Shown piece after piece: positions 8,768 through 39,431 of a stretch of DNA of 64,000 nt. The stretch is from positions 85,997 to 149,996 of the forward strand of contig JAHBUR010000007.1 in the NCBI GenBank assembly GCA_019637975.1, in the 5' to 3' direction. The position numbers and the translations under genes are program-made. Positions within the stretch are counted from its first letter, which is position 1. Every line of letters begins with the position of its first letter. Source of the stretch: Bacteroidota bacterium (GTDB lineage Bacteria > Bacteroidota > Ignavibacteria > UBA10030 > UBA6906). The notes under the pieces were generated by a model, which saw only the letters and a list, made by a program, of their open reading frames with translations, was not told the DNA's origin and searched no databases.

Positions 8768-8901
8768 GGCTCGAATATAGGAAAGAAGGGGAGAAGCTGC
8801 AAAAAAGTGGGGGCCGAGCTTGACTAATTGCAACTCCCTGTAGGACAGCGTATATTGAATATGAGCAATCATTCCTTCATCACCTTCATGAGAAAAAGCG
8901 T

Positions 8902-10047
8902 ATGCGAAAACTGATTCTGCCAGCAGCAATCATTCTTGGCGTTTTTGTCGTGTTATTAGAGGCTTCAGGGTGGGGCTGGAATACACATCGCTTCATCAAT
9001 CGTACCGTCGTGTATCATCTTCCCAACCGGATGATGCTGTTCATTCAGGACAGTTCCTTTTTCGCTGCACACGCCCATGACGCTGATGTTCGCGTCGACT
9101 ACGGCGATACCAGCCTTTATGCCGAGCGACCCCGTCATTTCATGGATATTGATGACTATCCGAATTTCCACAATCTGACAAGAAGTCTTGACACTTTGAT
9201 TATGCAATACGGATGGGAACGGGTGAAGGCAAACGGCACGAATCCGTGGGCGACGGTTTGGAATTACGATTCACTTGTGGCCCAGCTCAGCCGCGGCGAT
9301 TGGAATCAGGCAAAGCTCACCGCCTCCGACCTCGGGCATTACGTCGGTGATGCGCATCAACCGCTGCATAATACACTCAACTACAACGGACAGTACACGA
9401 ACAACTACGGCATTCATTCCCGCTACGAAACGACGATGCTCAGCCCGACATACTATCTGTCGCATCTCTTCATTACGCCGGATACGACGTACTACGTTGC
9501 CGACAGGATCAACTACATCTTTGACTACATCATTCACACCAACAGCTATGTTGATACGGTGTTGCAGGCCGACACGTACGCGAAGATCGTTTCGGGTTGG
9601 AACGGAAGCGGCACGGCTCCGGCCTCGTACTACAATGCTCTGTGGTTGAAGACGAGGGCCATCACGCTTGAGCAAGTCCAGCGCGCAACGGAAAGTCTCG
9701 CAGCACTCTGGTTTTCAGCGTGGATTGATGCCGGCCTGATTTCAACAACAGGCGTATTGCCTGACGTTGCCACGGTTCCCTCGGAGTTTTCGCTTTCGCA
9801 GAACTATCCCAATCCCTTCAATCCCTCCACGACGATATCCTACCGGCTGCCGGTCGGCGGGACGGTTTCCCTTAAAATCTACTCCACAGACGGAAAGGAA
9901 GTTGCTATCCTGGTCGGGGAAAATCAATCGGCGGGAGAACATTCAGTGCAGTTTGTTGCCTCAAGCTCGCTTGCTTCGGGCATGTATTTCTGTCAACTCA
10001 GGATTGGCAACTTTTCTCAAACAATCAAACTTGTTTTGATGAAATGA
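8902..10047 (+). CDS. S1/P1-family zinc nuclease with C-terminal T9SS sorting domain
   Basis: Signal peptide MRKLILPAAIILGVFVV. WGWNTHRFIN and HYVGDAHQPLH motifs of S1/P1 nucleases. The C-terminal ~80 aa (NYPNPFNPSTTISYRLP...MYFCQLRIGNFSQTIKLVLMK) form a type-A Por/T9SS sorting domain. Confidence 0.75.
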   Translation: MRKLILPAAIILGVFVVLLEASGWGWNTHRFINRTVVYHLPNRMMLFIQDSSFFAAHAHDADVRVDYGDTSLYAERPRHFMDIDDYPNFHNLTRSLDTLIMQYGWERVKANGTNPWATVWNYDSLVAQLSRGDWNQAKLTASDLGHYVGDAHQPLHNTLNYNGQYTNNYGIHSRYETTMLSPTYYLSHLFITPDTTYYVADRINYIFDYIIHTNSYVDTVLQADTYAKIVSGWNGSGTAPASYYNALWLKTRAITLEQVQRATESLAALWFSAWIDAGLISTTGVLPDVATVPSEFSLSQNYPNPFNPSTTISYRLPVGGTVSLKIYSTDGKEVAILVGENQSAGEHSVQFVASSSLASGMYFCQLRIGNFSQTIKLVLMK

Positions 10048-10231
10048 GATTGAGAAAAACCTGAGCAGAGAGAAGTTGATTTTTCTAAATAAGAACTTAT
10101 CTTTACCTGTGAGGTGACATGGTGTGTTCCTCGCAGCCGCGAAATGCCACCACTGCAATTACATCCGGAGCAATCCCCGCTCGCCGGTTAGATACTCATA
10201 GCGAATCAATCACCAAAGGAGGGCCCTGACC

Positions 10232-11650
10232 ATGGCTGATACGAGAACTCCCAATGCCGCAAATATCAATGATACGGCAGTGGAGGAGCTACGTTCGCGA
10301 GTTCGAGGAACTGTACTTCGCCCAACTGACGGCAGCTATGACGACGTCCGAAAAATCTGGAACGGCATTATCAACAAACATCCCGGCGTTATCGTACAAT
10401 GCACGGGTGCCGCCGATGTGATGGCTGCCGTGAATTTTGCGCGGGACAATGAACTACCCCTGGCAGTGCGGGGCGGCGGGCACAACGTCTCAGGCAATTC
10501 GGTTTGCGATTACGGAGTCGTGATTGACCTTTCTCCGATGCGCCGTGTTCGGGTTGATCCTTTCAACGGAACGGCGCGCGTGGACGGAGGAGCAAAACTC
10601 GGGGATGTGGACCATGAGGCGCAGGCCTTCGGCCTTGCAGTTCCAGTCGGCGTCGTGTCGGCCACAGGAATTGCTGGTCTTTCGCTCCACGGAGGAATGG
10701 GCTTCCTCACCCGCAAGTACGGGCTCACCTGCGACCATATTCTCTCCGCTGATGTCGTCACCGCCAATGGTAAGATGGTGGTGGCCGACGCGAAGAACAA
10801 CGCTGATCTGCTCTGGGCACTTCGCGGAGGTGGAGGAAGCTTTGGTGTTGTGACCTCGTTTGAGTTCAAGCTTCGTCCTGTCGGGCCGGACGTATGGATG
10901 TGCATCGTGATGTATCCTGTAGCGGAAGCGAAGAACGCCTTGAACACATGGAGGAAGTTTATGGAGACCGCACCGGAAGATGTCATGAGCATTGCCATCT
11001 ACTGGAATGCCCCGCACGAGGAACCGGTACCCAAGGAATATCAGGGCGCACCCGTCATTGTGCTTGCGGGATGCTGGAGCGGACCGGTGGAGAAGGGAGA
11101 AGCCGTGTTCAAACCCTTGCGTGAAGTGGCAACCCCCGCCGTTGATCTGAGCGGCCCTATGCCGTACCTCGTTGCACAAAAACTGTTCGATCCTGAGTAT
11201 CCCGACGGTAGGCGATACTACTGGAAGTCCATTTACCTGAAAGAGATCGACGCCGCAGTCATAGACATGTTGAGCGACTACGCAGCCAAACGTCCGTCCT
11301 CGTTGACTTCCATTGATGTGTGGTGCCTGGGTGGAGCAATCGGACGCGTGAAGCCGGAAGAGAGCGCGTTCTTCAAGCGGGATGCACCATACATGCTCGG
11401 CATCGAAGCAAACTGGGAAGACCCGAAAGACGATGAGTTGAATATTTCATGGACGCGCAGTCTGTACAAGGACGCGGAGAAATACTCACCGGGCGGGATG
11501 TACTTCAATTTTCCCGGTTTTCTTGAGGAGGGGGATGATCTGTTGAAGCAGTCGTTCGGAACCAACTATGAACGGTTGCGTCAAGTGAAGGCAAAATACG
11601 ATCCGCAGAATCTGTTTTCGTCCAACCTGAAGATTTCGGGTAAAGCATAG
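10232..11650 (+). CDS. FAD-linked oxidase (VAO/PCMH-type FAD-binding, BBE-like C-terminus)
   Basis: AVRGGGHNVSGNSV FAD-binding motif and a C-terminal BBE-like segment (YFNFPGF...YERLRQVKAKYDPQNLF). Confidence 0.75.
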   Translation: MADTRTPNAANINDTAVEELRSRVRGTVLRPTDGSYDDVRKIWNGIINKHPGVIVQCTGAADVMAAVNFARDNELPLAVRGGGHNVSGNSVCDYGVVIDLSPMRRVRVDPFNGTARVDGGAKLGDVDHEAQAFGLAVPVGVVSATGIAGLSLHGGMGFLTRKYGLTCDHILSADVVTANGKMVVADAKNNADLLWALRGGGGSFGVVTSFEFKLRPVGPDVWMCIVMYPVAEAKNALNTWRKFMETAPEDVMSIAIYWNAPHEEPVPKEYQGAPVIVLAGCWSGPVEKGEAVFKPLREVATPAVDLSGPMPYLVAQKLFDPEYPDGRRYYWKSIYLKEIDAAVIDMLSDYAAKRPSSLTSIDVWCLGGAIGRVKPEESAFFKRDAPYMLGIEANWEDPKDDELNISWTRSLYKDAEKYSPGGMYFNFPGFLEEGDDLLKQSFGTNYERLRQVKAKYDPQNLFSSNLKISGKA

Positions 11651-31926: not shown

Positions 31927-32394
31927 ATGACCAACTTCACACATGTCTATCTTTCCGGCGGGATGGAGTACGCCGACAACGAGGGGCGTGACTGGCGGCA
32001 GGAGATGCACACTTGGCTCGAAGAAAACCTCAAGTGCAGAGTCTTCAATCCCAACGTCGAAAGCGACCGCTTCTTTGCCCGCAACTACCCCCGTATCGAC
32101 GTTCGTGCGCTCAAGGAGAAAGACATCGTGACCTATGCGGCGATTGTTGCGCAACTCGTTGACATCGACTGCAAGGAAATTGCCGAGCGGTCGGAGCTGG
32201 TGATTTGTTATTGGGATGATTCCGCGATGCGCGGCGCCGGCACAAAAGGGGAGTTGACGATGGCAAAGTACTTCAGCAAGCCGGTGTACATGGTCACCTC
32301 CATGCCCTACACCGAAATTCCCGGCTGGGTGTTGGGATGCACAACGCTGATCTTCTCATCGTTTGATGAGTTGAAGAAGTTTTTGATGATGTGA
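31927..32394 (+). CDS. nucleoside 2-deoxyribosyltransferase / DNPH1-like (SLOG-fold) protein
   Basis: N-terminal VYLSGGMEYADNEGRDWRQ and C-terminal DDSAMRGAGTKGELTMAKYFSKPVYMV match the YxxG...D.GT..E.G.A...KPV pattern of the NDT/DNPH1 family. Host-like GC. Confidence 0.5.
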   Translation: MTNFTHVYLSGGMEYADNEGRDWRQEMHTWLEENLKCRVFNPNVESDRFFARNYPRIDVRALKEKDIVTYAAIVAQLVDIDCKEIAERSELVICYWDDSAMRGAGTKGELTMAKYFSKPVYMVTSMPYTEIPGWVLGCTTLIFSSFDELKKFLMM

Positions 32395-32483
32395 GCCAAT
32401 CGATCCCCATCAGCGTGATTGGAATACCCGATTGATTTTGCTATCTTTGCTACAAATTAACAATTCTCCTCAGGTTTCCTCCA

Positions 32484-33905
32484 TTGAATGAACTTGTAGA
32501 AATATTCCCTACTGAACGGCAGAAGCTCTACGAGAGGTTTGCAGACAAGCTTCAGACGGCGTCTCATCTCAATCGCCAACTTGTGAGCTTTCAGGCGAAC
32601 AAAGAGGAACCGATTTATCGCTGGTTCAAATACAAGGAGGGGTTTTCTTCAGGGCTCGTTAAGTATTTCCTGAACAAGTATTCAGATAAACCGGGGAGAC
32701 TTCTTGATCCTTTCGCCGGAGTAGGAACAACCTTATTCGCTGGCCAGTCACTTGGTTGGGATTCTTATGGCATTGAAGTTCTACCCGTTGGCGTTTTTGT
32801 TATGCAGACAAGGGAGGCCTTGCCCAAGATTAATCCACTTAATTTAAGCGAGAGCATCCAGACCTTTTGGTCAGAATTCGACAGAATTGAGAATTCCAAG
32901 ACCCTTTTCAATCACATATCAATCACAAGAGATGCCTTCCCAGATGACACTGAAGTTGCCCTAAATCGATTCCTTACATACTGCGAAAGTTTGCATAACA
33001 AGGACATCAAAACACTCTTGAGGTTTGCCGCATTCTCTCTTCTTGAAGAAATCAGCTACACGAGAAAAGACGGGCAATACCTCAGATGGGACTACCGTTC
33101 CAAGAGGGACTTGGCAGGTAAACCTTTCAATAAAGGCAGAATCCTCACTTTCGAGCAGGCATTAAGATTAAAACTCTCTCACATTGTGGCCGACCTTGGC
33201 CCTCAGAATGACTCACTCTTTGACACTCCAAGTGACAACGGGCACGATAAGCGGCCCATCAATATCATAGAGGGGTCATGTCTAGCGAAACTGCCAACTC
33301 TAGATAATGACTCCTTCGATTTCATTGTAACATCGCCGCCATACTGCAATCGCTATGATTACACAAGAACTTACGCGCTCGAACTAGTCTTTCTCGGATG
33401 CGATTCTGACAAGGTACGCAACCTGCGCCAAGAACTTTTGTCATGCACCGTCGAAAACAAAGAGAAACTAGAACAACTGAGACAACTCTACACTTCTTTC
33501 GGCAAAAGTGAGTCCTTTGATTCGGTGCTTCGTGTATACGATTCTTCACTTGCAATGACTGAAGTGAACGCCATCCTAGCCGAACTCAATAAATTGGAGA
33601 AACTCAACAACAACAATATTCCGAGAATGGTGCGCAACTACTTTCTCGAGATGTGTTTTGTAGTCTCCGAAATGGCCAGAGTTACCAAGAGTGGCGGGTA
33701 TTGCGTTATGGTAAACGACAATGTTCGCTATGGTGGTGAAGAGATTCCTGTCGACCTTATTCTCTCCGAGTTTGCTGAGGGATTTGGCTTCATCGTTCGG
33801 AATATTTTTGTCCTGCCCAGAGGCAAGGGAAACAGCAGCCAACAGATGGGAAACTATGGTCGAACGGAAATTCGAAAGTGCGTGTATCTATGGCAAAAAC
33901 GATGA
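32484..33905 (+). CDS. N6-adenine/N4-cytosine DNA methyltransferase (motif I DPFAGVGTT, motif IV SPPY; alpha-like order)
   Basis: LLDPFAGVGTTLFAG and FIVTSPPYCNRYDY. TTG start (no in-frame ATG). Markedly lower GC than the flanks. Confidence 0.8.
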   Translation: MNELVEIFPTERQKLYERFADKLQTASHLNRQLVSFQANKEEPIYRWFKYKEGFSSGLVKYFLNKYSDKPGRLLDPFAGVGTTLFAGQSLGWDSYGIEVLPVGVFVMQTREALPKINPLNLSESIQTFWSEFDRIENSKTLFNHISITRDAFPDDTEVALNRFLTYCESLHNKDIKTLLRFAAFSLLEEISYTRKDGQYLRWDYRSKRDLAGKPFNKGRILTFEQALRLKLSHIVADLGPQNDSLFDTPSDNGHDKRPINIIEGSCLAKLPTLDNDSFDFIVTSPPYCNRYDYTRTYALELVFLGCDSDKVRNLRQELLSCTVENKEKLEQLRQLYTSFGKSESFDSVLRVYDSSLAMTEVNAILAELNKLEKLNNNNIPRMVRNYFLEMCFVVSEMARVTKSGGYCVMVNDNVRYGGEEIPVDLILSEFAEGFGFIVRNIFVLPRGKGNSSQQMGNYGRTEIRKCVYLWQKR

Positions 33906-34858
33906 GACGTCAAAGTCCAATCACATCAGCGGAAGACCTGGTTACTCCGCGTGAGAAAACAAGGGCTGGTTTTATATCGCTTGCCCTGGAGAAAAACTAC
34001 TTAGCTGTCCCTTACATCGAAGAAGCAAAGGCATTGAAATCGCTTGCAGCCAGGGTTTCACACCCCACAGACCTACTGCAAGTCAAAGACCTGAGAGTTG
34101 GTTTGCTCACCGCTTCGGGCCTTTCCGACAAATCCTTGAACTATTTGACTGAAACAGATAAGACGCTCGCTATAAAGGAAATGATAGAGAAGTTTCTTGA
34201 ACCAGCGGGGGGGGACTTCATCGATGAACTCGTTTATCGCTATCTGCTGACGAAGGGGGATGCGTTAGGCGGGAAAGCAAGAAATCTCGCTGGAGTCTTG
34301 GGCGAGAGAAAGTTCTTGCGCACATTGTTGTCGGTTTTCAATCTATCGGGCATCAGCTACCAATGGAAAGATGACGAAACTAATACATGGCATGCACGAT
34401 TGAAAGATGACACAGATATCGAAAAGCGAACCAAAGGCTTGTACTGGGCAAACAATGGGCGCAACCGGCTTCTGATGATGAACATCAGAGTGCCAGTTGT
34501 GGAAAAGAACGTCGACCTGTCAATCTTGGACGGTACAGTCCTTGACTTGCGCAAGGGCAGTCAATCCATTTTACACAAGACCGACGCATATGTAGCCCTT
34601 GGAGAACTAAAAGGCGGCATTGATCCCGCTGGCGCAGACGAACACTGGAAGACCGCCAATTCTGCCTTGGAGCGAATCAGAATTAGTTTCAGCAAGAGGA
34701 AGGAGAAGCCACGGACATTTTTTGTCGGTGCGGCAATCGAGAACAGTATGGCTTCTGAAATCTTCAAGCAAATACAAAGTGGAGCTCTCGACAATGCTGC
34801 AAACCTTACAAATGATAACCAGTTGGCATCTATCTGCGAGTGGATTGTGAATTTGTAG
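33902..34858 (+). CDS. putative cognate restriction endonuclease (hypothetical protein)
   Basis: Its ATG overlaps the MTase stop (ATGA). It is co-directional and low-GC like the MTase. A possible D...ExK catalytic motif lies in TDAYVALGELKGG. No family match is recognisable by eye. Confidence 0.45.
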   Translation: MRRQSPITSAEDLVTPREKTRAGFISLALEKNYLAVPYIEEAKALKSLAARVSHPTDLLQVKDLRVGLLTASGLSDKSLNYLTETDKTLAIKEMIEKFLEPAGGDFIDELVYRYLLTKGDALGGKARNLAGVLGERKFLRTLLSVFNLSGISYQWKDDETNTWHARLKDDTDIEKRTKGLYWANNGRNRLLMMNIRVPVVEKNVDLSILDGTVLDLRKGSQSILHKTDAYVALGELKGGIDPAGADEHWKTANSALERIRISFSKRKEKPRTFFVGAAIENSMASEIFKQIQSGALDNAANLTNDNQLASICEWIVNL

Positions 34859-34907
34859 GTTGTAAAGAACCCTTCCGGCTGCCACGGCAAGATTGCTGTG
34901 TCAAGGA

Positions 34908-34978
34908 GCCGTGACAATATCCTCGGCTGAATCGTCACGGCGCGATGAGTATGCCCTGCTGCCGTGACGACCGAGGCT
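34908..34978. repeat. nested imperfect palindromes (GCCGTGAC/GTCACGGC; TCGTCACGGC/GCCGTGACGA; CCTCGGCT/AGCCGAGG) immediately 3' of the R-M cassette
   Basis: Read directly from the sequence. Could be a structured terminator or an insertion-junction remnant. Confidence 0.5.
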
Positions 34979-35152
34979 CTTAAAATTGAAGCGAAGGCTG
35001 TTGAGATGACGTACCCGCAGGTGATGTAAGCTCATGTGTCGGGACGGGAGTCCCGAACTACAGTCGAGGTTCATTCGTTGATATTTCCTGCACGAATGCG
35101 TACTTTAATACAGCAACAATGTGCCAACGAAGACTACGAAGGAACGACAGCC

Positions 35153-35481: not shown

Positions 35482-35838
35482 TCACTTCACCCAAAGAACC
35501 GTAATGCCGGGGTTGCTGCAGTTCAGATCGATATCCGGGTATTGTCCCACTTCTCCCCGCATTTCCTGAACATCAGCGTTGTACATTTCGTAGTCCTCGC
35601 CGTTGATGACTTCCCTCACCCGTGAACGCTGACGGAATGCCCAATTCCGAACCACCTCTCTCGTCGAGCCACCCTTGCCACTGCTGCCATGACCGTGAAT
35701 GATCTTGAGAATGCAAAGCGCCTTCGAGTTTCTCACCATCGAAAGCGCTGCACTCAGCTCCCGTTCAACAACATCGGGATGACGCGGCGGGTGTGCGACA
35801 TCTATTGTATGAATGACACTCATGCTCGCCCTGTTCAT
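35482..35838 (-). CDS. Smr-domain protein
   Basis: LKIIHGHGSSGKGGSTREVVRNWAFRQ matches the Smr signature. The start codon is uncertain; the ORF extends to 35916. Confidence 0.55.
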   Translation of the reverse strand: MNRASMSVIHTIDVAHPPRHPDVVERELSAALSMVRNSKALCILKIIHGHGSSGKGGSTREVVRNWAFRQRSRVREVINGEDYEMYNADVQEMRGEVGQYPDIDLNCSNPGITVLWVK

Positions 35839-35884
35839 TGCTATTGGCAGACTCAATAAATATATTTTTTCCGTCAACAACATC

Positions 35885-36325
35885 ATGAAGGCCGCTACTC
35901 TGACACACAAAGACACGTTGCTTCTTCAGAACGCCCGTTTCTACGAGGCATTCGAAAGCGCCGACCTTTCTGCATTGGATGATGTGTGGAGTCATGCCGG
36001 AAGCGTGAAGTGCATCCATCCCGGCTGGCATCTGCTCGAAGGCTGGCCTGCAATCAGGGAAAGCTGGGAGAGGATTTTCCGGGCGAACGCCAATATGAAA
36101 ATTTCTCTTCGCAATATTTCGGCGGAGATACGGGGAACATTAGGCATCGTGACGTTGATTGAAGAAATCTCCTACACAACTCCGAACTCAATCCGCACAG
36201 GTTCGATCATGGCGACAAACATCTTCGAACGGGTTGATGACGGTTGGAAGATGATTCACCATCACGGCTCTCCAATGATGGTAGCCGAGGAAGAGGGAAG
36301 TGACAACAACTTCCGGTACAACTGA
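35885..36325 (+). CDS. NTF2-like/SnoaL-like (DUF4440-type) protein
   Basis: LLLQNARFYEAFESADLSALDDVWSHAGSVKCIHPGW is a ketosteroid-isomerase-like pattern. Directly upstream of hpnCDE. Confidence 0.6.
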   Translation: MKAATLTHKDTLLLQNARFYEAFESADLSALDDVWSHAGSVKCIHPGWHLLEGWPAIRESWERIFRANANMKISLRNISAEIRGTLGIVTLIEEISYTTPNSIRTGSIMATNIFERVDDGWKMIHHHGSPMMVAEEEGSDNNFRYN

Positions 36326-36329
36326 TCTG

Positions 36330-37199
36330 ATGAATTCCCGCACGCATTCTTCTCCGTCCATTGAACGGGCGTTCAAACATTGTGAAGAGATCGCCCGCAC
36401 GCACTACGAGAATTTCCCCGTTGCATCTTTCTTTCTCCCCAAACACCTCAGGCCCTACGTTGCAGCAGTGTATGCCTTCGCAAGAACAGCCGATGATTTT
36501 GCCGACGAAGGCTCGATTCCTCCGGAGCAGCGGTTGGAGAAACTTGAGGGCTGGCAGCGACAATTGGATGAATGTTATGATGGGAATGCCGAAGACCCCA
36601 TCTTCATTGCGTTGGCCGAAGTCGTGCGTGAAAAGAAGATTCCGAAACAATTGTTGTCAGATTTGCTGACGGCCTTCAAAATGGACGTGACGACGAACCG
36701 GTATGCGACGTTCGACGATCTCATGTTTTACTGCAGGCATTCGGCAAATCCCGTTGGGAGGATTGTGCTTCATTTGTTCGATGATGCCTCCGAGCGAAAC
36801 ATGATGCTGTCTGACTCGATATGTACGGCGTTGCAGCTTGCGAACTTTTGGCAGGATATCGGCGTTGATGCGAGCAAGGGACGCATCTATATCCCGCTTG
36901 AAGATATTCGTCGTTTTGGCTATACTGAAACGGATCTTCTGGCCCGGCAACGGGATGAGCGTTTCATCGGGCTGTTGAAGTTTGAAGTTGAACGAACGCA
37001 AGCGCTGTTTAATGAGGGACGCCCGCTGTTGAGTGAAGCCACTCGTCGTTTGCGGTTTGAATTGGCCCTCACGTGGCACGGCGGCGTAATGATTCTCCGG
37101 AAGATAGAGCGTCAAGAGTACAATGTGTTTGTTCGTCGTCCGACGATTACCTCGACGGATAAGTTTTCAATTGTGATGAGATCATTGTTTCAGCGATAG
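36330..37199 (+). CDS. hpnC: hydroxysqualene synthase (squalene/phytoene synthase family)
   Basis: HYENFPVASFFLP and YAFARTADDFADEG (DxxxD) motifs. An alternative ATG at 36300 overlaps the upstream gene. Confidence 0.75.
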   Translation: MNSRTHSSPSIERAFKHCEEIARTHYENFPVASFFLPKHLRPYVAAVYAFARTADDFADEGSIPPEQRLEKLEGWQRQLDECYDGNAEDPIFIALAEVVREKKIPKQLLSDLLTAFKMDVTTNRYATFDDLMFYCRHSANPVGRIVLHLFDDASERNMMLSDSICTALQLANFWQDIGVDASKGRIYIPLEDIRRFGYTETDLLARQRDERFIGLLKFEVERTQALFNEGRPLLSEATRRLRFELALTWHGGVMILRKIERQEYNVFVRRPTITSTDKFSIVMRSLFQR

Positions 37200-37201
37200 G
37201 T

Positions 37202-38089
37202 ATGAGTGCAATTGCCGAAGACATAACAAAACAGAGTAACACGAGTTTCTACTACTCGTTCTCCGTTTTGCCGCCACACAAGCGTGAGGCAATTCATGCC
37301 GTGTACGCATTCTGCCGCTACACAGATGACATCGTTGATGAAGGCTCCGACGAGACGAAGAAGGTTGTGATGTTGCGGAAATGGCGCATGGAACTTGCCC
37401 GGACGTTGCACGGCGAGTCAAGCGTACCGTTGTTGAATCAGCTTGCCTCAACAGCGCGGCGGTTTAACATTCCGGTTGATCATTTCTACGAACTGATTCG
37501 CGGCGTTGAGATGGATTTGTCGAAGAACCGCTACAATGACTTCAACGAACTGAAAGAGTATTGCTATCTCGTGGCATCGTCTGTCGGGTTGATGTGCAGG
37601 CAAATTTTCGGGTATAGAAACGAATCGACTCGCGACTACGCGATCAATCTTGGTATTGCGCTGCAACTCACCAACATCCTGCGTGATGTGAAGGACGATG
37701 CGAAGCGCGGACGCATCTATATCCCGATCGAAGATATGAAGCTCTTCGGCGTTACGGAAGACGACATTTTGAACGCCCGCTACACACAGAACTTTGCCAA
37801 CCTGATGCGGTTCGAATGCAACCGCGCCCGCGAGTATTTCGATCTCGCCCGCAACGCGTTGAAAGACGAGGACAAGCATTACTTCTTTGCCGCCCGCATC
37901 ATGTGGTCGATTTACGCACATACGCTTCGCAGAATCGAGCGCTCGAACTATAATGTGTTCGAGCGGCGAATCTCCATTTCCAAACCCCTCAAACTGCTCA
38001 TCGCGTTCCGCTATTGGCTGAGCCATCAACTTCAATACGCGCACGAGCCTCGCGCTCCGCGTCATGCACTCTCCATCATTGGATTCTAA
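37202..38089 (+). CDS. hpnD: presqualene diphosphate synthase (squalene/phytoene synthase family)
   Basis: SFYYSFSVLPPHKREAIHAVYAFCRYTDDIVDE matches the SFYY/CR-DD signature. It is the second synthase paralogue in tandem. Confidence 0.75.
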   Translation: MSAIAEDITKQSNTSFYYSFSVLPPHKREAIHAVYAFCRYTDDIVDEGSDETKKVVMLRKWRMELARTLHGESSVPLLNQLASTARRFNIPVDHFYELIRGVEMDLSKNRYNDFNELKEYCYLVASSVGLMCRQIFGYRNESTRDYAINLGIALQLTNILRDVKDDAKRGRIYIPIEDMKLFGVTEDDILNARYTQNFANLMRFECNRAREYFDLARNALKDEDKHYFFAARIMWSIYAHTLRRIERSNYNVFERRISISKPLKLLIAFRYWLSHQLQYAHEPRAPRHALSIIGF

Positions 38090-39431
38090 GCCTGTCGTCA
38101 TTGTCGGCGGCGGGTTAAGCGGACTTGCTGCCGCTGTTGAACTTTCGTCAAGGAACATTCCCGTTGTTGTACTCGAACAGAAGCCCAAGTTGGGCGGTCG
38201 GGCGTATTCGTTTGTTGATGAAACAACCGGCGATGTGATTGACAACGGCCAGCATGTGTTGATTGCGGGGTATGAGAGAACGATGAGATTTCTGGAACGC
38301 ATCGGAACGAAACATCTTCTCACTATTCAGAATCAACCCCTTCTTCATTTTCATCATCCCCGCAGGGGATTCTGTTCATTCCGTATTCCTGATCTTCCGT
38401 CACCATTTCATTTGTTGGCAGGCATTCTCTCGACGGATCTTTTTTCATGGCGGGATAGGCTGAAACTGTTACGCGCCGGCATCTCTCTTCGAACATCTGA
38501 CAATGATTTTTCTCTCGACACAATGACGATCGAGGAGTGGCTTGATGACACCGGTCAGACGGATGAGACGAAACGCTCATTCTGGGAACCGCTTGCAATT
38601 TCTATCATGAACGAACACATTGCCAAAGCCTCTGCGCGTGTCTTCATTGATTCGTTGCGTCATGCATTTCTTGCCGAACGGAAGAACTCGGCCATTGCCA
38701 TCCCGCAAGTCGGGCTAAGCGAATTATATGTTGACGATGCCGTCAGGTTCATTCGTGAACGGGGTGGAGAGATTCGTGTCATCGCCGACGTGCTGCAACT
38801 TGAAGCGTGTGATAGTCGCATCAGTCATGTCAAGACGCGAAGCGGGGCTGATGTAGAATGCTCTGCCGTGATTCTCTCCGTTCCGCATTATAGATTGCCT
38901 GATCTGATGCCTCCTCAACTTCAACCGACAAATCTCACATCGTTTGCCTCCGTGCCCAATACACCTATCGTCTCGATTCATCTTTGGTTTGCGATTGACT
39001 TCATGCCTTATGATATGCTCGGGTTGATCGGGAGACGTGTGCAGTGGGTGTTCAACAAGAGAACGATCAACGAAGAGAAAGGCGAGGGCGGGCATGTATC
39101 GTGTGTGATCAGCGCGGGCGATGAATTCACCGGCATGTCGAGTGACGAGTTGGTGCGGATTGCAGTAGAAGATCTGCAATCTGTCTATCCTTCAGTCCCT
39201 CTCGCGCCTTCACACGGAGTTGTTATCAGAGAGAAGCGAGCGACATTCTCCTGCACTCCCGAAAGCGAGAAGCTTCGTCCCAACCATCAGACAGGAATCG
39301 CCAATCTCTTTCTCGCAGGCGATTGGACGAACACAGGCTTGCCTGCGACGATAGAAGGGGCAATTTTGAGCGGTGAGCGCTGTGCTGCGTTTGCAGCAGA
39401 AGTGTCTCAGTTAAAAGAGTTTCATCTCTGA
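38064..39431 (+). CDS. hpnE: hydroxysqualene dehydroxylase (FAD-dependent amine-oxidase fold)
   Basis: VVIVGGGLSGLAAAVEL dinucleotide-binding motif. Overlaps the hpnD stop. Third gene of the C-D-E set. Confidence 0.75.
   Translation: MHSPSLDSKPVVIVGGGLSGLAAAVELSSRNIPVVVLEQKPKLGGRAYSFVDETTGDVIDNGQHVLIAGYERTMRFLERIGTKHLLTIQNQPLLHFHHPRRGFCSFRIPDLPSPFHLLAGILSTDLFSWRDRLKLLRAGISLRTSDNDFSLDTMTIEEWLDDTGQTDETKRSFWEPLAISIMNEHIAKASARVFIDSLRHAFLAERKNSAIAIPQVGLSELYVDDAVRFIRERGGEIRVIADVLQLEACDSRISHVKTRSGADVECSAVILSVPHYRLPDLMPPQLQPTNLTSFASVPNTPIVSIHLWFAIDFMPYDMLGLIGRRVQWVFNKRTINEEKGEGGHVSCVISAGDEFTGMSSDELVRIAVEDLQSVYPSVPLAPSHGVVIREKRATFSCTPESEKLRPNHQTGIANLFLAGDWTNTGLPATIEGAILSGERCAAFAAEVSQLKEFHL

Follow-up and report, generated by a model that had tools for sequence, protein, structure and literature searches.

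A predicted AvaI/BsoBI-type restriction-modification gene pair, probably acquired horizontally, within a variable slot in the genome of an uncultured Chlorobi/Ignavibacteria-like bacterium

Introduction

BsoBI, a crystallized relative of the endonuclease reported here, recognizes C^YCGRG, contains an EXK catalytic motif and a histidine that is the proposed base, and reads the degenerate base pairs of its site through residues D246 and K81 (PMC1920265). Among DNA methyltransferases, the sequence SPPY is a variant of the catalytic motif IV that is found in N4-cytosine enzymes (PMC10406627). A literature search for the base methylated by M.BsoBI or M.AvaI returned nothing usable.

Here we describe a gene pair on a stretch of 64,000 nucleotides (the window) from a metagenome-assembled genome, the host being an uncultured Chlorobi/Ignavibacteria-like bacterium. 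An earlier note on the window had proposed a restriction-modification cassette made up of two overlapping genes, possibly of Type II. The open reading frames and family matches presented below bear this out.

Results

The cassette consists of a methyltransferase gene (M) followed by a restriction endonuclease gene (R), and both open reading frames are full length and without frameshifts (Table 1). The TTG at which M begins is the first canonical start codon past an in-frame stop codon (32433-32435), and the next in-frame starts are a GTG at codon 34 and an ATG at codon 107. The earlier note rightly saw in M a TTG start and the SPPY motif of a DNA methyltransferase. Its remark that M has no in-frame ATG is literally incorrect, but it holds in the sense that there is no usable one, because the ATG at codon 107 lies downstream of the AdoMet-binding motif. 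Homologues of M number in the thousands; among the matches listed nearly all are 473-476 aa long, and those compared by alignment have 473-474 aa and match M from residue 1 on. The closest cassettes that were fetched (L021-L025, one locus being a duplicate) begin M with TTG, and in most of the other cassettes the codon aligned with it is ATG.

Table 1. Features of the restriction-modification locus; positions are those of the window.
Feature	Position	Strand	Remarks
Restriction-modification pair	32484-34858	+	two overlapping intact ORFs
Methyltransferase gene M	32484..33905	+	473 aa, TTG start
Restriction endonuclease gene R, AvaI/BsoBI family	33890..34858	+	322 aa with the probable start ATG 33890
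Alternative starts of R	33902; 33878		ATG 33902 (318 aa, as annotated; ORF 33902-34858); GTG 33878
Overlap of M 3' end and probable R 5' end	33890..33905	+	16 nt; ATGA at 33902-33905 inside
Variable slot holding the cassette	32383..35073	.	blastn: without nucleotide homology to the closest relative genome (L002)
Conserved cassette leader 5' of M	32408..32483	+	probable promoter region; homology to closest cassettes
Candidate -7 promoter motif TATCTTTG	32442..32449	+	ATTG about 20 nt upstream
Motif I (AdoMet binding) of M, DPFAGVG	32706..32726	+	aa 75-81; alignments
Motif IV (catalytic) of M, SPPY	33333..33344	+	aa 284-287; aligns with DPPY of CcrM
K81 of R (BsoBI K81)	34130..34132	+	reads degenerate base pair in BsoBI
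Catalytic Asp D209 of R (BsoBI D212)	34514..34516	+
E-L-K catalytic motif of R	34604..34612	+	E239 and K241 (BsoBI E240, K242)
D245 to H252 of R	34622..34645	+	BsoBI D246, degenerate-pair reader; BsoBI H253, proposed general base
Junction segment	34867..35073	+	GC-rich hairpins; absent from other cassettes and from the relative genome

M matches the PADLOC profile MTase_II (PDLC03224) over nearly its full length with an E-value of 8.6e-143, and the Pfam profile N6_N4_Mtase (PF01555) with an E-value of 6.5e-9, the latter alignment joining residues 42-99 of M to the C-terminal part of the profile. Alignment with 11 homologues (12 sequences in total) indicated that M is full length and that its motifs are conserved: in motif I, D75, P76, F77, A78, G79 and G81 are invariant and position 80 is V or A, and TSPPY (aa 283-287) is invariant as well. 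DPFAGVG of M also lines up with the corresponding motif in CcrM and TTHA0409. With both motifs kept and the protein at full length, M does not have the appearance of a pseudogene that has lost its catalytic residues. Motif I precedes motif IV with about 200 aa between them, which is not the beta-class order (IV, then I) and which we take to be the alpha-type arrangement. On sequence grounds, M is a predicted N4-cytosine methyltransferase for CYCGRG, an assignment made because of its SPPY motif and its partner nuclease; that the product is m4C is our presumption from the SPPY motif.

R, labeled 'restriction endonuclease' in GenBank, is clearly a member of the well-studied AvaI/BsoBI family by its sequence matches. 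It matches Pfam family PF09194 (Endonuc-BsobI) over profile positions 4-313 of 313 with an E-value of 5.3e-136 and a score of 453.5 bits, the curated cut-off being 25 bits, and the PADLOC profile REase_II with an E-value of 1e-119. A phmmer comparison with BsoBI (PDB 1DC1) gave an E-value of 3.2e-97, with 156 of the 311 aligned residues identical. Residues K81, D212, E240, K242, D246, and H253 of BsoBI are all kept in R in the alignment to 1DC1. The earlier note had seen a possible D...ExK signature in R, correctly as it turns out (D209...E239-L-K241 in the numbering of the 322-aa protein), and had left the protein as an unplaceable, uncharacterized endonuclease; at 50% identity to BsoBI that description no longer applies, and the family matched is one of nucleases.

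As R and BsoBI are only 50% identical, the pair could have an altered specificity, its target being not the full degenerate site but a variant or part of the CYCGRG set, such as CCCGGG, the site of the remote relative TspMI, or CTCGAG. AvaI and BsoBI themselves are only about 55% identical and have equal specificity, which counts against such a change. The remote homologue TspMI has a tightened specificity and is changed at K81 and H253 (PMC1920265), whereas K81, D246, and H253 are kept in R. We consider an altered specificity quite unlikely.

The start of R was compared over 70 cassettes, in which the geometry of the M/R overlap is conserved. The earlier note had pointed to an ATG within the stop codon of M and had suggested translational coupling on this basis. 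That ATGA overlap is real (...AAA CGA TGA, ATG at 33902-33904), and two more in-frame starts, ATG 33890 and GTG 33878, lie just 5' of it. An ATG at -12 (33890 here) is found in 65 of the 70 cassettes, whereas the ATG within the stop codon is rarely conserved, and ATG 33890 reproduces the BsoBI numbering. In addition, the leucine codon of M at the -12 site ends in A in 56-59 of the 63 distinct genes, compared to 35% of the other leucine codons (P ~1e-18, by a statistic that ignores phylogeny). Judged from these comparisons, R probably starts at ATG 33890, which gives a protein of 322 aa and a 16-nt overlap with M. The conserved start is thus probably 12 nt further upstream than the one on which coupling had been argued, and still inside M. 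Both ATGs (33890 and 33902) are present in this genome, and either may be the start.

Masking of the start codons by hairpins was considered and rejected, as the folds of 33840-33940 (R start) and 32450-32540 (M start) are no more stable than those of shuffled sequences (z +0.9 and z +0.6); RNA structure at the M/R junction for coupling by hairpin unmasking was accordingly not supported. No small helix-turn-helix C gene with a C-box 5' of R, as in a controller-protein system, was found, M and R overlapping and only 89 nt lying 5' of M, and no additional open reading frame outside M and R was found in the cassette.

The closest cassettes (L021, L022) are homologous to this one at the nucleotide level from 32408-32410 onward, and a five-way cassette alignment contains two invariant blocks in the leader, AATTGGAAT and TATCTTT. 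The leader is a probable promoter region. The candidate motif TATCTTTG fits TAnnTTTG, the Bacteroidota-type -7 consensus of Bacteroides promoters. A sigma-70 promoter scan gave nothing above chance, including at 32442..32449, and a scan for intrinsic terminators gave nothing above chance either. The RNA fold of 34867-35073 has a free energy of -65.7 kcal/mol (z -2.7); no second copy of this segment occurs in the window or in any locus fetched, and its being a repeated element was rejected. The ends of the cassette coincide with a 15-nt inverted repeat, the arms of which are 32450-32464 and 34844-34858, and L022 also has an end inverted repeat, with 15 complementary bases (16 with one mismatch). 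Terminal inverted repeats were nevertheless rejected as a family feature, since they are absent from L021, L024, and more than 50 other cassettes, in which the best matches do not exceed those in shuffled sequences.

A blastn search with the window against the closest relative (L002) showed that homology stops at 32382 and restarts at 35074. In the nearest relative, whose FtsH is 99% identical, both flanks are kept and two unrelated genes occupy the slot. Of 19 related loci that were fetched, most keep the ftsH-p221-p155 synteny. Close cassettes, with M identities of 81-84% (75-82% at the nucleotide level), are located in unrelated neighborhoods in other lineages. Because the slot of the relative differs and the cassettes elsewhere have different neighborhoods, horizontal acquisition, which the earlier note had also proposed, is supported. 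A genome with an empty site was sought and only a relative with different cargo was found, so that insertion and replacement are indistinguishable. No transposase or integrase gene of a self-mobile element is present between the breakpoints (32383-35073), and no flanking direct repeat (target-site duplication) was found around the cassette. Phage carriage was not indicated: tblastn gave no match in 50,697 phage records, and the only hits in a scan of viral contigs were three distant relatives of the methyltransferase (31-46% identical), beside which no R gene was detected. M and R co-occur in 70 cassettes, and M precedes R in every locus with a detectable R match. In two loci (L037 and L038) another restriction-modification pair takes the place of the first ~135 codons of R.

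The GC content of the cassette is 46.1% (M 45.0%, R 47.5%), compared to 53.6% in the left and 51.9% in the right 2-kb flank and a window mean of 51.5% (sd 1.6). No other 2.4-kb stretch of the window has a lower GC content than the cassette, and 0.3% of the sliding windows are as low; the GC3 of the cassette is 50-53% compared to 51-70% in seven neighboring genes, five of which have at least 60%. The GC contrast of about 45% against flanks of about 55-58% that had been noted earlier is therefore real, but smaller. Over 47 cassettes, GC content correlates with that of the flanks (r 0.75), and because 34 of the 47 lie below their flanks, low GC is a habit of the family.

These family-wide GC values, as well as the lack of a true empty site and the other genes found in the slot of the relative, would also fit a cassette that is ancestral here and was replaced in the relative, its low GC being the usual AT bias of restriction-modification genes. 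This is improbable, as the cassette is present in none of the 19 genomes with p155, most of which also have ftsH and p221, its counterparts with 81-84% identity in M are found in unrelated contexts in other lineages, and its GC3 is low relative to that of the seven neighbors.

Discussion

Our main reading, to which we assign a probability of roughly 85%, is that the locus holds an intact Type IIP system of the AvaI/BsoBI family that arrived by horizontal transfer as a unit of two genes and their own leader, 2.46 kb in length (~32408-34866). The observations behind it are the family membership and conserved residues of the proteins, the geometry of the genes, their foreign composition, the variable slot, and the differing neighborhoods; that the enzymes are active, that CYCGRG is their target and m4C the product of M, that the leader holds a promoter, and that translation is coupled we infer.

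In the proposed system, M has motif I, a target-recognition region of ~200 aa and then the SPPY motif IV, and would methylate cytosine N4 in CYCGRG, thereby protecting the ~55 sites per 64 kb of host DNA. R would be a BsoBI-like homodimeric PD-(D/E)XK enzyme that encircles the DNA and cuts unmodified C^YCGRG, with D209, E239, and K241 in catalysis, H252 as the proposed general base, and K81 and D245 reading the degenerate Y:R pairs. The R gene begins in the last 16 nt of M (in its last 4 nt with the ATGA start), and the cassette has no room for a controller protein. Because of the nested start, the shared leader, and the lack of a controller, synthesis of R probably depends on M being transcribed and translated and cannot run ahead of it. 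Whether the nested start also serves, without a controller, to time a toxic nuclease is a more speculative matter. The R start would then be kept by selection on the leucine wobble base 12 nt before the M stop codon, R would be made only by ribosomes that have just completed M, and the TTG of M conserved in the sub-clade would, together with the coupling, keep both proteins at a low level. Alternatively, the specificity of the clade may have shifted away from CYCGRG. Taken jointly, these two ideas are unlikely.

CYCGRG occurs at 55 sites in the window compared to an expected 65.8 ± 8.2, which is not a significant depletion, and restriction-site avoidance was rejected. The window shows no footprint of restriction pressure acting over the long term, which is neutral, not negative, for recent acquisition. 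A silent or decaying system, in which R lacks activity or expression is poor given the TTG start and the absence of a Shine-Dalgarno sequence, and M is effectively an orphan, would agree with this lack of avoidance, with the usually weaker initiation at TTG, and with the decayed versions in the family (L037, L038), but is very improbable, since both open reading frames are full length without frameshifts and keep all catalytic residues, and since the TTG is common to the closest cassettes at the same codon, pointing to a maintained feature rather than a lesion.

Under the main reading, the locus can be annotated as a system of the AvaI/BsoBI type whose predicted target is CYCGRG, and R is not an unknown enzyme; this helps in transformation and in reading the methylomes of uncultured Chlorobi/Ignavibacteria-like bacteria and has little significance beyond annotation. 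The locus also shows clearly how near-identical genomes can carry different cargo in a variable slot, and the family-wide nested start of R is a small, testable point on how controller-less restriction-modification systems keep the nuclease subordinate.

Among known systems, R is homologous over its full length to BsoBI of Bacillus stearothermophilus (isoschizomers AvaI and NspIII), with which it has in common the PD-(D/E)XK catalytic residues, the histidine, and both residues that read degenerate pairs, and, if R starts at 33890, an equal length and N-terminal register; it differs from BsoBI in half of its residues and in its host, which is neither a Bacillus nor an Anabaena. M resembles the beta-class N4/N6 amino-methyltransferases (CcrM, M.PvuII-like; PF01555) in having a motif I of the form FxGxG and a (S/D)PPY motif IV, but is permuted, as in the beta-class enzymes motif IV comes first. 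On plasmid pLAC3 of Ligilactobacillus acidipiscis, an adjacent pair annotated in RefSeq as AvaI/BsoBI family is homologous in both proteins (M 39% and R 41% identical), which places M in the family of partner methyltransferases, and the genes lie on the same strand, as here. On pAFL-J5-2 of Enterococcus faecalis, R, the only protein compared, is 48% identical, and a methyltransferase gene likewise lies next to it in the same orientation. IS elements or a recombinase flank the plasmid copies but not the present cassette, and the plasmid genes have the order R then M, whereas the order here and in all 70 close cassettes is M then R.

Identification of the Cassette as a BsoBI-Like Restriction-Modification Pair

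The cassette (32484-34858) consists of a gene encoding a methyltransferase with an SPPY motif (M) and, 3' of it, a gene encoding a nuclease (R). The nuclease, which the earlier note had left unplaced, matched the Pfam family Endonuc-BsobI (PF09194) over essentially the whole profile (E = 5.3e-136) and the PADLOC Type II restriction endonuclease model (E = 1e-119). Its sole match among solved structures was BsoBI (1DC1; E = 3.2e-97), with 156 identical residues out of 311 aligned, and in this alignment R keeps D212, E240, K242, H253, K81, and D246 of BsoBI. In the summary that PMC1920265 gives with reference to van der Woerd et al. (2001), D212, E240, and K242 form the active site of BsoBI and H253 is the proposed catalytic base, while K81 and D246 read the Y:R pairs. 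An altered specificity of the M-R pair is an unlikely alternative. BsoBI shares the site C^YCGRG with AvaI and NspIII (PMC1920265) and belongs to the EcoRI-like alpha branch of the PD...D/ExK enzymes (Pingoud et al., 2014).

M gave a nearly full-length match to a PADLOC model for Type II methyltransferases (E = 8.6e-143) and a weaker one to the Pfam family N6_N4_Mtase. Within this beta-ordered Pfam profile, its motif I, DPFAGVG (aa 75-81), matched the C-terminal portion, and its motif IV, SPPY (aa 284-287), aligned with the N-terminal DPPY of CcrM. Read from these alignments, the order in M is therefore motif I, target-recognition region, motif IV, which is permuted relative to the beta class, in which motif IV precedes motif I (PMC10406627). 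Because of this order, M was rejected as a beta-class amino-methyltransferase. SPPY is the variant of motif IV found in N4-cytosine methyltransferases (PMC10406627).

Following the textbook mechanism, M would most likely modify CYCGRG in host DNA and R, as a homodimeric nuclease, would most likely cut unmodified C^YCGRG in incoming DNA. The methylases of AvaI and BsoBI reportedly make m4C. The window contains 55 CYCGRG sites, one of them within M at 33645, and depletion of the site in the window was not significant (55 vs. 65.8 ± 8.2), a result that fits either a recent arrival or complete protection and is uninformative on activity. That the system is silent or decaying is unlikely. Decay of this kind is seen in two related loci (L037 and L038), in which the 5' third of R has given way to another restriction-modification pair. 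This unrelated pair (4448-6794 in L037), composed of a 325-aa SPPY methyltransferase plus an ORF of 272 aa, takes the place of the first ~135 codons of the BsoBI-like nuclease and leaves a remnant of 185 aa, so that these loci carry one restriction-modification system nested in another.

Features of the cassette and its surroundings (window coordinates; L002, locus of the closest relative)
Feature	Position	Strand	Description
p155	31927-32394		155 aa, upstream neighbor
M ORF	32484-33905	+	473 aa, TTG start
R ORF	end 34858	+	candidate starts GTG 33878, ATG 33890, ATG 33902
Junction segment	34867-35073		207 nt, downstream of R; common neither to other cassettes nor to L002
113-aa protein	35482-35823	-	conserved beside Fe-S assembly gene; HGHGSSGKGG motif
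SnoaL-like gene	35822-36325		SnoaL_3 (Pfam E = 2.9e-26); absent from L002
Two SQS_PSY genes, then amine-oxidase/FAD gene	36390-39431		HpnC/HpnD/HpnE-like squalene synthesis cluster

Start Codons and Overlap of the Two Genes

Upstream of M an in-frame stop (32433-32435) is followed by the TTG at 32484 as first canonical start; later in-frame starts are a GTG at codon 34 and an ATG at codon 107. The statement that M has no in-frame ATG is literally incorrect; since this ATG falls past the AdoMet-binding motif (aa 75-81), it is better put as "no usable in-frame ATG." The gene geometry was compared with that of more than 80 fetched cassettes of the family. In the closest of those fetched (L021-L025, 81-84% identity), M likewise begins with TTG at the equivalent codon; the aligned codon is ATG in most of the remoter cassettes, and the M homologs are 473-474 aa long and align from residue 1. 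These comparisons indicate that the TTG start is real and a trait of the sub-clade.

As noted earlier, the stop codon of M (TGA) shares bases with the ATG at 33902-33904. Of 70 cassettes, only 13 have a start codon at the corresponding position and 46 have ATA; at the codon lying 12 nt upstream, 65 have ATG and 4 have GTG. The A of this upstream ATG is the wobble base of one of the Leu codons in M, and its TG comes from the codon for the invariant Trp470. Among 63 distinct genes, 56 have A as the last base of this Leu codon, compared to 35% of all remaining Leu codons in those genes (binomial P ~1e-18, shared ancestry ignored). From ATG 33890, R would be 322 aa long, with its N-terminal region in the exact numbering of the 323-aa BsoBI. 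Given the conserved ATG, the wobble bias, and this numbering, R most likely starts at 33890, which would make its overlap with M 16 nt; the annotated ATGA start at 33902 is possible in this genome. With either start R begins inside M, and we infer that translation of the two genes is coupled. No stable RNA fold was predicted at the junction, so any coupling would involve ribosomes terminating at or passing the overlap and not the unmasking of a hairpin. To a specialist no feature of the pair is surprising, and the sole mildly interesting point is the nested start of R, which the family keeps at a wobble position in M.

Support for Horizontal Acquisition Into a Variable Slot

With p155 as the query, 19 related loci were identified among GTDB species genomes. 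The arrangement ftsH-p221-p155 (p221, the gene between the other two) is kept in most of them, and the cassette is absent after p155 from all 19. In the closest locus (L002, from an uncultured Chlorobi bacterium), FtsH, p155, and the Fe-S assembly protein are 99, 94, and 95% identical, respectively, and both flanks are present in the same order. Its slot (8898-11585) holds two unrelated genes of host-like GC, encoding 441 and 369 aa; Pfam searches with these two proteins gave no significant match, and the 441-aa protein has a lipoprotein-like N-terminus. Nucleotide homology between the window and L002 ends at 32382 and restarts at 35074, whereas homology to the closest related cassettes runs from ~32408 to 34866 (82% over 2463 nt with L021). 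The neighbors of those cassettes are wholly different (ArsR and methyltransferases, a sigma factor, glycosyltransferases). Horizontal acquisition of the 2.46-kb M-R unit between host genes, as proposed earlier, is thus well supported by comparison of the loci, and vertical inheritance with loss in the relatives is unlikely. No transposase, integrase, or target duplication was found at the cassette. Because a search among related genomes found no empty site, simple insertion and replacement are not distinguishable.

The GC content of the cassette is 46.1% (M 45.0%, R 47.5%), the lowest of any 2.4-kb stretch within the 64 kb (window mean 51.5%, SD 1.6 for stretches of this size). The lower GC noted earlier is therefore borne out, but the contrast is smaller than stated, the adjoining 2 kb having 53.6% (left) and 51.9% (right) and not 55-58%. 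GC3 is 50-53% in the cassette vs. 51-70% in seven neighboring genes (60% or more in five). Across 47 cassettes, GC correlates with host GC (r = 0.75), and 34 of them lie below their flanks, which makes low GC alone a weak argument for acquisition; the comparative evidence is strong.

The 75 nt upstream of M are common to related cassettes, with invariant blocks that include TATCTTTG (32442-32449), preceded by ATTG at ~20 nt. Both elements fit the Bacteroidota -7/-33 promoter consensus, and a promoter within the unit itself is probable; a sigma-70 scan of this leader found nothing. A 15-nt inverted repeat (14/15 complementary) lies exactly at the cassette ends, in the leader (32450-32464) and in the last codons and stop of R (34844-34858). 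L022 shares this repeat (15 complementary bases, or 16 with one mismatch), and L021, L024, and the family at large lack it; it may be due to chance or a sub-clade feature. The junction segment contains three CCGTGAC/GTCACGG copies that fold into strong hairpins (MFE -65.7 kcal/mol, z -2.7), and no other copy of it was found in the window or any fetched locus. Further downstream, the 113-aa protein gave a sub-threshold match to the Smr domain (E = 0.011) and may be a small Smr-like nuclease. Compared with L002, the window has a second indel at 35887-36356, at the SnoaL-like gene (128 nt in L002 in place of 470 nt), and the squalene cluster just downstream of the cassette region is syntenic in L002.

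Comparison With Known Systems

An adjacent pair on plasmid pLAC3, named "AvaI/BsoBI family type II restriction endonuclease" and "DNA methyltransferase" in RefSeq, is homologous to both proteins (R 41%, M 39% identical). Judged by this homology, M and R are a cognate pair of the known AvaI/BsoBI family. Homologs of each protein number thousands in the database, and in the MAG GCA_026129445.1 (JAHCIC010000007.1, "Bacteroidetes bacterium") the pair is already annotated as "restriction endonuclease" and "site-specific DNA-methyltransferase." A controller-regulated system was rejected because the cassette has no C gene. The pairs on pLAC3 (L108) and pAFL-J5-2 (L109) are flanked by IS256/IS1216/IS30 transposases or a tyrosine recombinase. 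The gene order is M-R here and in 70/70 close cassettes, whereas it is R-M on these two Firmicutes plasmids. With R 50% identical to the crystallized prototype BsoBI, the pair is an uncharacterized new member of a well-known family.
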